Shown here piece after piece: positions 26,523 through 57,378 of a DNA stretch of 64,000 bases (positions within the stretch are counted from its first letter, which is position 1; the number at the start of each line of letters is the position of its first letter). Below the pieces are notes generated by a model. That model saw only the letters and a program-made list of their open reading frames with translations, was not told the origin of the DNA and searched no databases. The DNA comes from Candidatus Gilichinskyi gelida (lineage in GTDB: Bacteria; Acidobacteriota; Thermoanaerobaculia; Gp7-AA8). The position numbers and the translations under genes were made by a program. Location of the stretch: NCBI GenBank assembly GCA_038040385.1, contig JBBPII010000008.1:109091-173090 (forward strand). Reading direction: 5' to 3'.

Positions 26523-27241
26523 ACATCCGCTCCATCACCGCGCCGAATCCCGGACCGTTCACGCTCGACGGCACCCGCACCTACCTCATCGACGACACGG
26601 CGGTGCTCGATCCGGGGCCGGCGATCGGCGCGCACATCGACGCCATCGCCGCGGCGATGCCCAACCTGCGCACCATCTTCATCACCCACCGCCACGGCGA
26701 CCACGCCCCGGCCGCCGTCCCGCTGAAGCAGCGGACCGGCGCGCGAATCGTCGCCCCGCGCGGCGTGCTCGATGAGACCGACCGAGTCGTCGAAGACGGC
26801 GAGGTCGTCGACGGGCTGGAAGTGATCGCCACGCCCGGCCACACCAACGAGCACGTCTGCTACCTCACCGCGGACGGCGATCTCTTCACCGGCGACACCA
26901 TCCTCGGCAGCGGCACGACCACCATCTTCCCGCCCGACGGCCACATGGGCGATTACATCCGCTCGCTGCGGCGCCTGCACGAACGCCGGCCGCGCCGCAT
27001 CTATCCCGCGCACGGCCCCACGCGCGACGACGCCGTGGCGCTGATCGACGAGTACATCGCCCACCGCCTTCAGCGCGAGCAGCAGGTCCTCGACGCCATC
27101 GCCGCCGGCGCGCGCAGCGTCGAAGAGATGCGCCGCCGCATCTATCCCGATCTCGACCCGCGCCTGCACGGCGCGGCGGAGATCCAGATACGCGCGCACC
27201 TCATCAAATTGGAAGAGGAGGGCCGGCTCCCGTCATCCTGA
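26519..27241 (+). CDS. MBL-fold metallo-hydrolase
   Basis: HxHxDH motif (THRHGDHAP), then TPGHTNEHV and the GDTILG Asp. The GTG start overlaps the NUDIX stop. The last codons plus stop (..PSS*) are supplied by REP copy A. Confidence 0.8.
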   Translation: MNIRSITAPNPGPFTLDGTRTYLIDDTAVLDPGPAIGAHIDAIAAAMPNLRTIFITHRHGDHAPAAVPLKQRTGARIVAPRGVLDETDRVVEDGEVVDGLEVIATPGHTNEHVCYLTADGDLFTGDTILGSGTTTIFPPDGHMGDYIRSLRRLHERRPRRIYPAHGPTRDDAVALIDEYIAHRLQREQQVLDAIAAGARSVEEMRRRIYPDLDPRLHGAAEIQIRAHLIKLEEEGRLPSS

Positions 27242-27307
27242 GCCGCGCAGACGGCGAAGGATCTCAAGATGCGGCATCCGGAGATCCTTCGCTACGCTCA
27301 GGATGAC
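27232..27307. repeat. REP/MITE-like palindromic element, copy A
   Basis: Left arm GTCATCCTGAGCCGCGCAGACGGCGAAGGATCTC, loop, right arm GAGATCCTTCGCTACGCTCAGGATGAC. The same left arm recurs at 38504, 44875 and 57293. Confidence 0.85.
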
Positions 27308-27312
27308 GGAAG

Positions 27313-27765
27313 TCACCTCGGTATCACCATCCGAATGAACGCCTTGTTCACGTAGTACGTGTACTCCTCGTCGTCGATGCGCAGGAACGCTTCGGTCGTA
27401 TCGTTCAGGACGTCGGAGATGCGCGACTGCTCGCGCGGGCGGTCGATCGGCACGGTGCCTTCGATGCGGGAGCCGTCGGCGAGCTCCAGGATGGTGAGCT
27501 TCTCGATCAGCGTGACCTCCAGCTCCACCACTTCGGGAAGTTTCTCGAACTTCACCCAGAGGATCTGATCGCGGTTGACCATCTTCGGCACGCCGCCGGC
27601 GAGCATGGGGAAGAACTTCCGCGTGCCGTTGAGGTAGTCGGCGAGCGTTTCCGGCCCCTCGCGGTGCTCGGAGAACGGGTAGAGGTAGACGAAGTACTCG
27701 TCGGGATCGATGCCGACGAGGGCCACGGTCACAGCGACCTCGTTCATCGGCACCTGGAAGGTCAT
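27313..27765 (-). CDS. Hypothetical protein
   Basis: 150-aa ORF with coding-like composition and no recognised motif. Confidence 0.4.
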   Translation of the reverse strand: MTFQVPMNEVAVTVALVGIDPDEYFVYLYPFSEHREGPETLADYLNGTRKFFPMLAGGVPKMVNRDQILWVKFEKLPEVVELEVTLIEKLTILELADGSRIEGTVPIDRPREQSRISDVLNDTTEAFLRIDDEEYTYYVNKAFIRMVIPR

Positions 27766-27800
27766 CGTGCGAATGATACGGCGGCTACAATACGCCCGCC

Positions 27801-54419: not shown

Positions 54420-54661
54420 TCAACCGGCTGCGGGAGCTGCGCACCGCCCGCGGCTGGTCGCAGGGCGAGCTCGCGGAGCGGCTGGGCGTGTCGCGGCAGA
54501 CGGTCAACGCCATCGAGACGGAAAAGTACGATCCCAGCCTGCCGCTGGCCTTCACTATCGCCGGACTCTTCACGCTGGCCATCGAGGACATCTTCCGCCC
54601 CAACGGCTCGGGAGCCGCTCCGGTCGCGGCGCGGCCGCCGGATCGTGGTTTCATTGACTGA
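54416..54661 (+). CDS. XRE/Cro-C1-family helix-turn-helix transcriptional regulator (YozG-like)
   Basis: 81 aa with a canonical HTH (WSQGELAERLGVSRQTVNAIETEKYDPSLPLAFTIAGLF). Confidence 0.85.
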   Translation: MINRLRELRTARGWSQGELAERLGVSRQTVNAIETEKYDPSLPLAFTIAGLFTLAIEDIFRPNGSGAAPVAARPPDRGFID

Positions 54662-55238
54662 TTCTAGTAAATGACCACGCGCTCCAGTGATGCAATTTAC
54701 GGCGCGGCACGTCGCTACTCCATCCCGTTCTGACGAGCTCTCGGCCAAGAAGGGACCGGAAGGAGGCATGTGTCATAGCCACGACGCTCCCGTGGTTCTC
54801 GGCAAGTTGCCATAACCATTCCGCCGCCGCTCGCGCACGTTGTTCCTCGTCCGTCGTGACGTGCGGACGACGAAGCGCAGCACGGGCGAGCCAACGAACG
54901 CCGTACGTAAGGGCCCACCCGAACATCGGCAGCCGGATTCGTCCAAGCGCCGGCGGAAGCAGCTCGAGCTCGCTCAAGAGTGGTGATGTGAGCACTTCTC
55001 GCCCCGGAGCAAGCACTTTCGCCGACTCAACTGCTCGGCGCGCCACACTCGCCACAAGGATGCCACTGGCTGCGGCGGCTGCCCTCAGCTCCACTGGCGG
55101 GACGTCTTCCGAATCAACGCCAGCCGCTTCGTACGCCTCACGCCAACGGAGGAACTCCGCGCCGTTGATCCAACCGGAATGCACATGGCTAGAACGCCCG
55201 TGCCTTACAAGAACGATCTTCAGGGACACTCTGCACAA
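54651..55238 (-). CDS. Histidine phosphatase (phosphoglycerate-mutase-like) family protein
   Basis: N-terminal RHG motif (IVLVRHGRSSH). 195 aa. Confidence 0.6.
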   Translation of the reverse strand: MCRVSLKIVLVRHGRSSHVHSGWINGAEFLRWREAYEAAGVDSEDVPPVELRAAAAASGILVASVARRAVESAKVLAPGREVLTSPLLSELELLPPALGRIRLPMFGWALTYGVRWLARAALRRPHVTTDEEQRARAAAEWLWQLAENHGSVVAMTHASFRSLLGRELVRTGWSSDVPRRKLHHWSAWSFTRISQ

Positions 55239-55313
55239 AACGTATCATTCCATGTCGCACCCCGCTCCACCGTTTGTCATGCGTGAGCTGTTGTTACGGC
55301 TAGACTCACCCGC

Positions 55314-57302
55314 ATGAACCGCCTCGCCAACGAGACCTCCCCCTACCTCCTCCAGCACGCGCACAACCCGGTCGACTGGTTTCCGTGGGGGGAGGAGGCG
55401 TTCGCGAAGGCTCGCGCCGAGGGCAAGCCGGTCTTTCTCTCAATCGGGTACTCGGCCTGCCACTGGTGCCACGTGATGGAGCGCGAGTCGTTCGAGAGCG
55501 AGCAGACCGCCGCCGTCCTCAACGAGGATTTCGTATCGATCAAGGTCGACCGCGAGGAGCGGCCGGACGTCGACTCCATCTACATGCAGGCGGTGCAACT
55601 GATGACCGGGCACGGCGGCTGGCCGATGTCGGTCTTCCTCACGCCCGACGCGCAACCGTTCTACGCCGGAACGTACTTTCCGCCCGACGACCGGCACGGC
55701 ATGCCGGGATTCCGGCGGGTGCTGGCGCACGTGTCGGAGGCGTACCGTTCGCGGCCCGATGAGGTGCGCGCGGCGTCGAAGGAGGTGACCGAGGCGATCG
55801 GCGCGTCGCTGGAGGCGAAAGGGGAGGCGACCATCGACCGTCCCTCGCTCGACCGCGCCGCCGCGCGCATCGCGCAGTCATACGACCCGGTGAACGGCGG
55901 CTTCGGCGGCGCGCCGAAGTTCCCTCCGTCGATGACGCTCGACTTTCTGATGCAGAGCGATGGTCACGACGAGATCATCAAAAACACTCTGACCAAAATG
56001 GCGCGCGGCGGCATCTACGACCAGATCGGCGGCGGCTTCCATCGCTACTCGGTCGACGCGCGGTGGCTCGTACCGCACTTCGAGAAGATGCTCTACGACA
56101 ACGCGCTGCTCGCCCGGCTCTACACCCGCGCCTGGCAATGGTCGAAGGAGCCGCTCTTCGCGCGCACAGCGCACGAGGTCCTCGGATTCGTCGAGCGGGA
56201 GATGACCTCGCCGGACGGCGCGTTCTACTCCACGCTCGACGCCGACTCCGAAGGGGAAGAGGGGAAGTTCTACGTCTGGTCGCGCGCCGAGGTGATGGAG
56301 GTGCTGGGGGCGGAGGAAGGGCGGGTCTTTTGCGCGTTGTACGACGTCACTGAGCGCGGGAACTGGGAGGGGGCGAACATCCTCAACGTCCCGCGCGATC
56401 CGGAGAGCGTCGCCGGCGACCTCGGCATCACGCTCGACCAGCTCGCCGACATCGCCGCGCGCGGCAAGTGCAAGCTGTACGGCGTGCGCGCCAAACGCGT
56501 CTGGCCGGCGCGCGACGAGAAGGTCCTCACCGGCTGGAACGCGTGGATGCTCGCCGCGTTCGCCGACGCCTGCGTGGCCTTCGACCGCTACCACGACACG
56601 GTGCGGCGCAACGCCGACTTCCTCCTGACGCGCGCCGACGCGAACGGCCGCGTCATGCGCACCGAGAAAATCGCCGGGCTCCTCGAGGACTACACCGGCT
56701 ACGCCTGGGGCCTCATCCTCGCCTACGAGGCGCTGCACGAGCGGCGGTACCTCGACGCCGCACGAAAAGCGATGGACCAGGTGCTCGATCGCTTCTCGGA
56801 CGAAAAGGGCGGCTTCTTCGACACGCCCATCGATCACGAGAAGCTGATCACGCGGCCGAAGGACCTCTTCGACAACGCCACGCCGTCCGGCAACTCCGTC
56901 GCTGCCGACGTGCTGCTCCGCCTCGCGCTGCTCTTCGCCGACGAGCGATACGCGCTCGCGGCGACGACCGCGCTGGAGTCGACGTGGCCGCTGGTCGAGC
57001 GCCATCCGTCCGGCTTCGGCTTCCTCCTCGGCGCGGCTGAGTGGCGCGCCGGGCAGCCGAAGGAGATCGCCATCACCGGACCGGCGAACGATGCGGCGTT
57101 CCGCGCGCTGCGCGCGGTGGTCGGCGAGACGTTCCTCCCGCATCGCGTGCTGGTGGCGGGGGAAGGATCGGCGGGGCTGGCGCTGATGGAGGGCCGGGCG
57201 AACGACCGCGTCATGGCGTATGTGTGCCAGGCGTACGCATGTCAGGAGCCGACGCGCGATCCGGAGCGGCTGCGCGCGCTGTTGGCCAACACGTCATCCT
57301 GA
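55314..57302 (+). CDS. Cytoplasmic thioredoxin-domain protein of the YyaL/DUF255 family, paralog of 44912..46642
   Basis: [30 protein letters not shown]...[14 protein letters not shown], no signal peptide, 662 aa. Its C-terminal ..NTSS* is supplied by REP copy D. Confidence 0.85.
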
Positions 57303-57378
57303 GCCGCGCAGACGGCGAAGGATCTCGTCCGCGCTACTTGAGATCCTTCCGCTTCGCTTCGCTCAGCGTCAGGATGAC
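57293..57378. repeat. REP/MITE-like palindromic element, copy D
   Basis: Left arm identical to copy A; right arm GAGATCCTTCCGCTTCGCTTCGCTCAGCGTCAGGATGAC. Holds the stop of the plus-strand YyaL gene, and (reverse strand) the last 14 codons plus stop of the minus-strand GT39 gene. Confidence 0.85.

Follow-up and report, generated by a model that had tools for sequence, protein, structure and literature searches.

Why do four unrelated genes in a 64-kb stretch of bacterial DNA close with the same codons? The stretch (hereafter the window) comprises 64,000 nucleotides of Candidatus Gilichinskyi gelida, a member of the Acidobacteriota (contig JBBPII010000008.1, positions 109,091–173,090). The element in question is a palindromic repeat whose 34-nt arm, GTCATCCTGAGCCGCGCAGACGGCGAAGGATCTC, was found as an exact copy at positions 27232, 38504, 44875 and 57293, where zero exact occurrences are expected in shuffled sequence. 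All four identical long arms lay on the plus strand, each beside the end of a plus-strand gene. Divergent palindromes were present additionally at 37685–37784 and approximately 51967–52061, and a search with arm profiles (nhmmer) recovered six elements, corresponding to 12 arms, and nothing further in the 64 kb. The original prediction of six copies, four of them with an identical left arm, was thus borne out at the same coordinates. It had rightly described the two other copies as divergent, but their placement between genes does not suit copy 2, as its dimer ends 12 nt before the start codon of an ABC ATPase gene (ATG 37797). We consider it likely that these elements are repetitive extragenic palindromes (REPs) with a CGTC/TGTC tag, paired as dimers, i.e., mobile non-coding DNA gathered at gene 3′ ends and closing genes by means of a TGA inside its stem.

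Arm positions 8–10 (TGA) formed the end of the open reading frames (ORFs) 26213..27241, 37668..38513, 41804..44884 and 55314..57302. According to Pfam, these encode a metallo-beta-lactamase (MBL) hydrolase (Lactamase_B and BLACT_WH), an ABC ATPase (ABC_tran), an FG-GAP/ASPIC protein (FG-GAP_3 and UnbV_ASPIC) and YyaL (Thioredox_DsbH), respectively. ORF ends and domains therefore agree with the claim that four unrelated genes end in a repeat-encoded Ser-Ser-stop. The NCBI entries for the YyaL and ABC proteins (P0001 and P0121) carry exactly these window ends. A fifth gene had been overlooked: the minus-strand PMT_2-like gene 57334..59601 reads across the right arm of copy 6 and ends …VILTLSEAKRKDLK* in the loop. 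The coordinates are collected in Table 1.

Table 1. Positions of the six repeat copies in the window and of the tags and codons located in them.
Feature	Coordinates	Strand	Description
Copy 1	27231..27308	+	CGTC-tagged REP dimer; long left arm 27232-27265, short right arm to 27307
Copy 1 tag bases	C27231 and G27308	+	
Copy 1 TGA	27239-27241	+	stop of MBL hydrolase gene 26519-27241
Copy 2	37684..37790	+	107-nt insertion relative to empty sites
Copy 2 dimer	37685-37784	+	TGTC-tagged, reads TGTC…GACA; two long arms, CCCGAGC variant without TGA
Copy 3	38503..38581	+	dimer 38504-38580, between ABC ATPase and PrmC genes
Copy 3 TGA	38511-38513	+	ABC ATPase stop, protein end …LELTYPTSS*
Copy 3 ATG	38576-38578	+	in right stem; likely PrmC start (MTLETIADL…)
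Copy 4	44874..44950	+	dimer 44875-44949, between FG-GAP/ASPIC gene and secreted YyaL paralogue
Copy 4 TGA	44882-44884	+	FG-GAP stop, protein end …GGGRPSS*
Copy 4 ATG	44912-44914	+	in loop; start of YyaL paralogue
Copy 5	51967..52061	+	divergent dimer, degenerate tags TTT…AAA, nested-type left arm
Copy 6	57292..57379	+	dimer 57293-57378, between convergent genes
Copy 6 TGA	57300-57302	+	YyaL stop
Copy 6 TAG	57334-57336	-	in loop; stop of PMT_2-like gene

The left arms of copies 1, 3, 4 and 6 were identical, and their right arms differed between copies in length and sequence. All four read CGTC…GACG, and this corrects the arm limits first given: the C before the left arm and the G after the right arm belong to the element as part of the CGTC tag. 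Copy 5 directly follows the TAA stop (51963–51965) of a XerC/D-like recombinase gene and precedes a CHP04442-family gene.

Each arm consists of a tag YGTC, a stem AYCCY-GA-(mini-hairpin)-GA-RGGRT and a tail CTC; it is a palindrome ATCCT-GA-(mini-hairpin)-GA-AGGAT, in which the apex of the mini-hairpin is C-GNA-G. The two arms of each element also pair mutually, giving hairpins or cruciforms of 63–170 nt; their ends, GTCATCC…GGATGAC, are fixed, the loops vary and the inner stems show compensatory changes. The short unit has nine stem positions, two of which are G·A/A·G mismatches, and a 3-nt loop (GNA), and in the long units an A bulges from an inner stem of 5 bp. The variants of the mini-hairpin change on both sides together (GCCG…CGGC, GGCG…CGCC, GCGC…GCGC, GCCC…GGGC, GTCG…CGAC and ACAG…CTGT), the short form being GC-GNA-GC, a definition fitted by the short-arm apices GCGAAGC (15), GCGCAGC (7), GCGTAGC (5) and GCGGAGC (4). 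Among 32 distinct arms, 97.8% of the cells were paired and 6 of 10 pairs changed on both sides (34 cells), a level of covariation reached in none of 500 shuffles; the pairs A4-T31 and T5-A30 were invariant or nearly so. This self-complementarity of the arm is not demanded by the pairing of one arm with the other. In 196 distinct flanks, 46% had C and 52% had T at −1 before GTC, with no other flank preference. The d(GCGNAGC) sequence, with its GNA triloop closed by C-G, is a mini-hairpin DNA motif of unusual stability in single-stranded DNA (PMC13037366, PMC3201870), and the GC-GNA-GC apex hints at a possible step at the DNA level.

Folded as RNA, the six copies reached −37 to −85 kcal/mol with z scores of −2.8 to −11.4 (copy 1, −53.5 kcal/mol, z −8.5; copy 2, −85.1 kcal/mol, z −11.4; copy 5, −59 kcal/mol, z −7.6). 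No run of T (U) followed any of the six hairpins, the next bases being GGAAGT, ACGGCC, GCTCGA, GGCGGC, ACTAAAAAAA and GAGGCG; copy 5 has a run of A downstream. Of the proposed terminator function, the strong RNA fold was confirmed, and the canonical intrinsic (Rho-independent) terminator was ruled out by the missing T-run. Strong folding and covariation, and a position after gene ends like that of attC sites, would also suit a ribozyme or a gene for a structured non-coding RNA, with a CUGA…GAA core that is loosely hammerhead-like, or an integron attC site. Such an origin is scarcely credible: the elements had no match in Rfam at the gathering threshold or at E ≤ 1, the hammerhead core CUGANGA was absent upon direct reading of the sequence, the ends do not read RYYYAAC/GTTRRRY, the sole nearby tyrosine recombinase is the XerC/D-like one, itself without an element in the related locus L111, and the C-G-closed GNA triloop is the DNA-stability motif mentioned above.

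The CGTC-tagged REPs described by Di Nocera, De Gregorio and Rocco (2013, BMC Genomics 14:522; PMC3733652) include dRS3 of Neisseria and RPE-4/RPE-6 of Rickettsia. In that work, a unit is made of an unpaired terminal CGTC (variants TGTC and CCTC), a stem of 8–9 bp opening with A/T pairs, a loop of 4–5 nt and a short 3′ tail. The units mostly form inverted dimers with variable and often structured spacers and no dedicated transposase, the dimer peptides reading VI…HD, i.e., with the tags outward; they lie at 20 bp or less from ORF 3′ ends, at times inside ORFs where they are read as protein. Judged by their sequence, the six copies of the window are inverted dimers of a CGTC/TGTC-tagged REP with the tags outward. 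The window family shares with the published repeats the CGTC/TGTC tag, the opening of the stem by A-T then T-A, the short tail, the outward-tag inverted dimers and the proximity of ORF 3′ ends, and no dedicated transposase was found in the DNA searched. It differs from them by a stem broken by tandem G·A mismatches, by an apex that is a GNA triloop mini-hairpin or an extended/nested form instead of a 4–5 nt loop, by a tail CTC/CCC where the published one is CCA, by a stop codon that is a TGA inside the stem and not in the tag, by its hosts, Acidobacteriota and Verrucomicrobiota, which are unlisted for CGTC repeats in PMC3733652, and by an identical 32-mer common to two phyla. Since a stem of 8–9 bp with a loop of 4–5 nt was not found, these features point to a probable new family within the CGTC-tagged superfamily, distinct from CGTC-1 to CGTC-4. 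A literature search with the raw repeat sequence retrieved unrelated primers only. REP termini often provide flanking ORFs with stop codons, for example TAG from GTAG tags (PMC3733652). The donation of stops predicted for the window is therefore real, but it is no novelty, as both stop donation and the position at ORF 3′ ends are already published for REPs; the finding is a new family of a known class.

Comparison with relatives indicated that the tails of the four window genes are repeat-derived. If the SS* tails were instead native conserved C-termini, and the DNA identity a matter of coincidence or of convergent terminator evolution, relatives without the repeat would be expected to end alike, and one such case exists: YyaL of locus L112 ends NTSS* without an intact hairpin. 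However, its TTCATCCTGA / TCATCCTGA abuts a different repeat, as a remnant would, and for this reason TTCATCCTGA in L112 is read as a repeat remnant and not as a native tail. The other orthologues had different ends. YyaL orthologues (n = 120) commonly showed …DPERLRALL followed by 0–5 variable residues, many of them stopping right after LL. Most ABC ATPase orthologues (n = 120) ended …FLELTY(E/G)(N/D/T)D*, and the clade nearest to the window ended …P(T/V/L/M)SS* or …SSRA*; in the latter, the arm is the CCCGAGC variant without TGA, and a GCGTAGC apex gives TAG instead. Empty sites were also observed. In L113, the ABC protein of which is 96% identical, the site of copy 3 was empty, the ABC ATPase ended …LTYGAD* and the PrmC start overlapped it by 14 nt. 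In L116, the native end of the FG-GAP gene was …HTIEQK*, and its stop and the start of the YyaL paralogue overlapped by 4 nt (GTGA), which is the ancestral state of the copy 4 junction. The syntenic locus L117 had no copy 1, and its MBL gene ended …IKIEEESEE*. Of the 46 positions in the BLACT_WH model, the window MBL protein covers only 1–37, and distant homologues are 12–15 residues longer, so the gene end at copy 1 falls inside a domain, though the protein of L117 is truncated as well. The copy 2 site was empty in five related loci (L113, L114/L117, L182 and L183), and in L111 the XerC/D-like and CHP04442 genes stand 15 nt apart, leaving no room for copy 5. Together with the exact identity of 34 nt at four unrelated genes, where none is expected, and with the lack of a T-run noted above, these native ends and empty sites leave the native-tail explanation practically no probability: the orthologue comparison refutes it, and the repeat-encoded reading came through the same comparison intact.

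The distribution was surveyed with a 32-mer carrying three degenerate positions in one genome per species, at least 109 eight-kb blocks forming the sample; all the counts below refer to the matches listed in this genome collection and to the window. At least 43 species genomes contained the 32-mer; they belong to two phyla, with approximately 24 Acidobacteriota (Thermoanaerobaculia, gp7 and Vicinamibacterales) and approximately 19 Verrucomicrobiota (Chthoniobacterales), as counted by accession prefix. The source genome of the window did not figure among the matches listed. Among 130 gene-facing ends, 20 used the TGA of the element, 31 lay 4–15 nt past the stop and 19 at 16–31 nt, and none of the 130 corresponded to a gene ending deeper within the element. 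ORFs reading into the element did so in the TGA frame in 21 of 28 cases with looser criteria (P = 7.8e-6), and in 20 of 20 with strict gene criteria; these 20, from 16 loci and the window, differ both in the gene and in its flanks. Most copies are thus intergenic, yet the TGA-frame bias is strong, and the prediction of in-frame gene ends was not refuted by the census. The long arm was upstream in 13 of 18 unidirectional heterodimers (13 versus 5, P = 0.10); the rule that it always faces the upstream gene is accordingly rejected in favor of a weak trend. Single arms exist alone and fold independently.

We propose that the elements are mobile non-coding DNA, or were so until recently, and that they gather at gene 3′ ends or only a few bases from them. 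The outer stem reads G-TCA-TCC-TGA inward from both ends, so that two serines and a stop close any gene entering in that frame. Where an element inserts into the last codons of a gene or into an operon stop/start overlap, it would survive if the TGA frame fits, the TGA of the repeat becoming the working stop, and now and then the ATG of GGATGAC, or an ATG in the loop, would become the start of the downstream gene. The simplest reading is a survivorship filter: an insertion in the TGA frame would cost few residues, other frames would add a long tail, and the frame bias would reflect selection against long read-through tails. The ends of the orthologues and the frame bias support the interpretation of repeat-supplied stops at gene ends given by the original prediction.

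The downstream genes were distributed at chance with respect to the frame of the element ATG (21/24/13), and a systematic donation of start codons was rejected on this ground; such donation is therefore only occasional, PrmC (copy 3) and the YyaL paralogue (copy 4) being examples. At copy 4, the N-terminus of the YyaL paralogue is encoded by the loop and right arm (window 44912–44977) and is joined to the native …AALAVPAHA; the fusion forms a signal-peptide-like 22-mer, and element-free relatives have ordinary signal peptides. At copy 2, the mechanical ORF of an ECF sigma factor (window 37039–37689, minus strand, 216 aa) has its ATG inside the left end of the element. In the empty-site relatives the protein is called at 194 aa, which places the true start at a downstream ATG (MAEREQL…), and the window ORF is a repeat-induced N-terminal over-extension. 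Among known repeats, the mycobacterial interspersed repetitive units (MIRUs) are small repeats whose frames overlap the stop/start codons of flanking operon genes, and the Rickettsia palindromic elements (RPEs) are small repeats read as protein, in in-frame insertions within genes. The window family resembles both in having frames that overlap gene ends or are read as protein. It differs from the MIRUs, which are direct tandem units, in being palindromic and without sequence relation to them, and from the RPEs in that these insert in frame within genes.

The intact copies were more conserved than their surroundings. Copy 3 was identical over 77/77 nt in L182 and L183, whereas the ABC gene beside it differed from those of L182/L183 at 8.2% of all positions and 17.5–18% of third positions, and the bases touching the copy at 7 of 34 (counted by eye in alignment A7); zero differences in 77 against 17.5% at third positions has a P of approximately 4e-7. 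The 51 nt of copy 4 shared with L117 showed one difference (P approximately 9e-4). In L110, where one arm of copy 6 is gone, the remaining arm had drifted at approximately 7 of approximately 52 positions (by-eye count). Conversion from other copies cannot account for the identity at the level of single copies because the loops are copy-specific. The intact hairpins appear to be under purifying selection. The leading candidates for the selected role would be termination, mRNA 3′ ends or cistron ratios, by likeness with the REPs of E. coli, which, as Liang, Rudd and Deutscher (2015) are cited in PMC12306157, lower translation when located 15 nt or less from a stop. As in the E. coli REP and bacterial interspersed mosaic elements, to the extent that they are covered by that source, 51 of the 130 gene-facing ends of the window family were at or within 15 nt of a stop; unlike in these, the stop is often inside the stem itself, and ribosome stalling would be carried over here by analogy only.

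It is possible, although we find it doubtful, that the hairpins are not selfish and are primarily selected host regulatory elements acting as mRNA stabilizers, ribosome-stalling attenuators or translation couplers. In the coupling version, the base of the stem holds the TGA of the upstream gene on one strand and the ATG of the downstream gene on the other, so that a ribosome terminating at the former would open the stem and free the start codon. The identity of copy 3 despite diverged flanks, the decay of the copy 6 arm once its partner was lost and the effect cited for E. coli REPs would all fit, and copies 3 and 4 replaced the ancestral overlaps (14 nt in L113 and 4 nt in L116); copy 3 is present in L182 and L183, where the JGI calls start PrmC at the ATG of the element. 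Against such a primary role, the downstream genes are in the ATG frame at chance only, many copies lie between convergent genes or in arrays, the sites turn over among different repeat families and the genes of close relatives work without the element. With mobile REP dimers as the preferred reading, intact hairpins may still be kept for effects on transcripts, such as 3′-end protection or slowed terminating ribosomes, if the analogy with the E. coli REPs of the cited account holds.

The mobility of the family was visible from the comparison of orthologous sites. Copy 2 is a 107-nt insertion that includes five additional nucleotides, CGGCC, beyond the dimer and ends 6 nt before the ABC ATPase ATG; the empty and filled sites showed no direct duplication. 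It belongs to a subfamily of approximately 100 nt found with approximately 80% identity at unrelated sites in other Acidobacteriota genomes. The ABC-PrmC junction existed in three states: empty in L113, with a CGTC dimer in the window, L182 and L183, and with a GTAG-type REP dimer in L114, in which the GTAG tag gives ABC its TAG stop. The yyaL 3′ end bore, at the orthologous sites of copy 6, a CGTC-tagged element with swapped arms in L111, a remnant and another repeat in L112, and in L110 a Y1_Tnp gene bordered on both sides by GTAG-type hairpins in inverted sets, which destroyed the left arm of copy 6. The element thus turns over and the TCAxCCTGA stop is retained. In copy 4 of L117 (L117:17205–17290), the loop and right arm were as in the window and the apex of the left arm was different and nested (GACCCTGAGCGAAGCGAAGGGG); because of this, a recent replacement or conversion of the four identical window left arms seems implied. 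In relatives, the places of copies 1 and 4 were taken by other hairpin repeats (L117:231–314 and L115:1177–1260), namely a AGTGATGAGT…ACTCATCACT palindrome and an AT-rich GAATTCGAAATTCGAA palindrome, and several repeat families, unrelated to one another, share these two gene junctions as hotspots.

REPINs are hairpin-forming pairs of REPs that are mobilized by REP-associated Y1 tyrosine transposases (RAYTs) (Bertels & Rainey, Nunvar et al., Ton-Hoang et al.). The window family is similar in its two inverted REP units, its long hairpin, its many copies, its presence/absence polymorphism and its long persistence at orthologous sites, and a GTAG-type REP family with a hairpin-flanked Y1_Tnp coexists in the close relative L110. 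It differs in its tag, CGTC and not GTAG, in that no RAYT flanked by the repeat was found in the DNA searched, and in arms identical across phyla where REPINs are usually species-specific. The single Y1_Tnp seen (L110:5210–5620) is flanked by GTAG-type hairpins. It belongs to a REPtron-like unit (L110:5050–5800) located at the position of the window's copy 6 left arm; the Y1_Tnp (PF01797) is N-terminally truncated, and its flanks are inverted sets of three small hairpins, GCCGCCGTAGGCGGC, CACCCGGCTTGAGCCGGGTG and GAGCCCGCGTAGCGGGC. The tblastn queries were an E. coli RAYT, an IS200 TnpA and the L110 Y1_Tnp; two weak RAYT/IS200-like matches were checked and were unrelated genes.

A classical miniature inverted-repeat transposable element (MITE), i.e., a deletion derivative of an insertion sequence (IS) moved in trans by a DDE transposase via terminal inverted repeats, would likewise be short, palindromic, multi-copy and polymorphic in presence. 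We judge it very unlikely in view of the copy 2 junction without target-site duplication, the flanks without a motif beyond the Y tag, the lone arms that fold by themselves, the modular swapping of the arm apex, and the failure to see a parent IS or, with Y1 queries and no specific search for DDE transposases, any related transposase in approximately 0.9 Mb of flanking DNA. From the REP/MITE-like label of the original prediction, REP, as a CGTC-tagged dimer, is kept and the IS-derived MITE is dropped.

Several points weigh against the proposal of mobile REP dimers closing genes. The insertion boundaries lack a clean target duplication, and copy 2 has five extra bases. By tblastn, a Y1/RAYT gene was absent from the window, the 109 genomic blocks and the 64 viral contigs described below, the whole genomes being unsearched. 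The stem and loop sizes differ from those of the published CGTC families (tandem G·A pairs and a 3-nt loop). The census is a sample and not a whole-genome census, and its gene calls came from an ORF and third-position GC content heuristic, not from a gene finder. Native stops just upstream of the elements were evenly distributed among the frames (19/22/23); with no depletion of the TGA frame, the capture of the stop through loss of an upstream in-frame native stop is unsupported. Finally, a role of the repeat at the RNA level would be by analogy only.

The short unit, GTCATCCTGAGCGNAGCGAAGGATC, was present on 64 predicted viral contigs of IMG/VR (L118–L181; 43–70% GC), mostly TGTC-tagged and as singles and dimers, and the long arm was on none of these viral contigs. 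The contigs could be vectors or misassigned host DNA. We tentatively suggest, as an unlikely interpretation, that the repeat is a cross-phylum, sequence-constrained gene-end adaptor, entering operon overlaps, kept as a hairpin that sets the cistron ratio and spreading as single-stranded DNA via conserved host or phage machinery. With a consensus TGA inward and ATG outward at both ends, such an adaptor could enter stop/start overlaps and spare both genes; the DNA-type GCGNAGC apex, the lack of a dedicated transposase and the GC range of the viral contigs would speak for the single-stranded spread.

Other repeats were observed in the window and in relatives. A GTAG-tagged REP dimer, GTGTAGCGGCGCCCGCTTCGGGCGCC…CGGCCGCCGCTACAC (window 42408–42473), lies in frame within the FG-GAP/ASPIC ORF and encodes approximately 22 residues (…SVAAPASGADDRRPRAAAATL…); it belongs to the family that occupies the ABC-PrmC junction of L114. 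Its sole Rfam match, to mir-1451 (E = 0.46), is due to chance. A single GTAG-type unit, GGCGCCCGTAGCGGGCGCCGCTACAC, is located at 2750–2779. A third, GC-rich palindrome family (…GGCGGGCGGCGGGACGCCG…) was present at 13048–13125 and 32634–32725. Several YyaL orthologues elsewhere end …GGTPPTS*, which may originate from a repeat of this third kind located at the same 3′ end, the protein ends alone having been seen. The palindrome at 32634 borders a segment of approximately 1.2 kb (32631–33828) absent from the syntenic L117, which carries a gene with DUF2278 and Lamin-tail domains (32739–33731, minus strand). In the Thermoanaerobaculia genome SMAG_U15922 (L012, L037, L061, L004, L038 and L040), a subfamily of 95 nt has the conserved flanks caagtcgttgttcac[…]gacttgttcaga; its copies are often found in tandem arrays, 130–300 nt apart, which suggests a larger composite repeat unit.

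For annotation, these results mean that many proteins of metagenome-assembled genomes of both phyla have repeat-encoded ends (…xSS* and …SSRA* ends, VILS… starts), which can mislead orthology, domain boundary and signal-peptide calls. The loci L113 and L116 provide before/after cases of how a selfish hairpin can part two overlapping genes and leave both functional, by carrying in a stop, and in some instances a start. Worthwhile as details, the cross-phylum identity, the conservation of single copies, the frame bias and the splitting of operon overlaps make up no new kind of system. The findings extend the CGTC-tagged superfamily to the Acidobacteriota and Verrucomicrobiota, and the cross-phylum 32-mer, together with copies more conserved than the neighboring coding DNA, sharpens the questions of how REPs without a transposase move and whether a function retains them.

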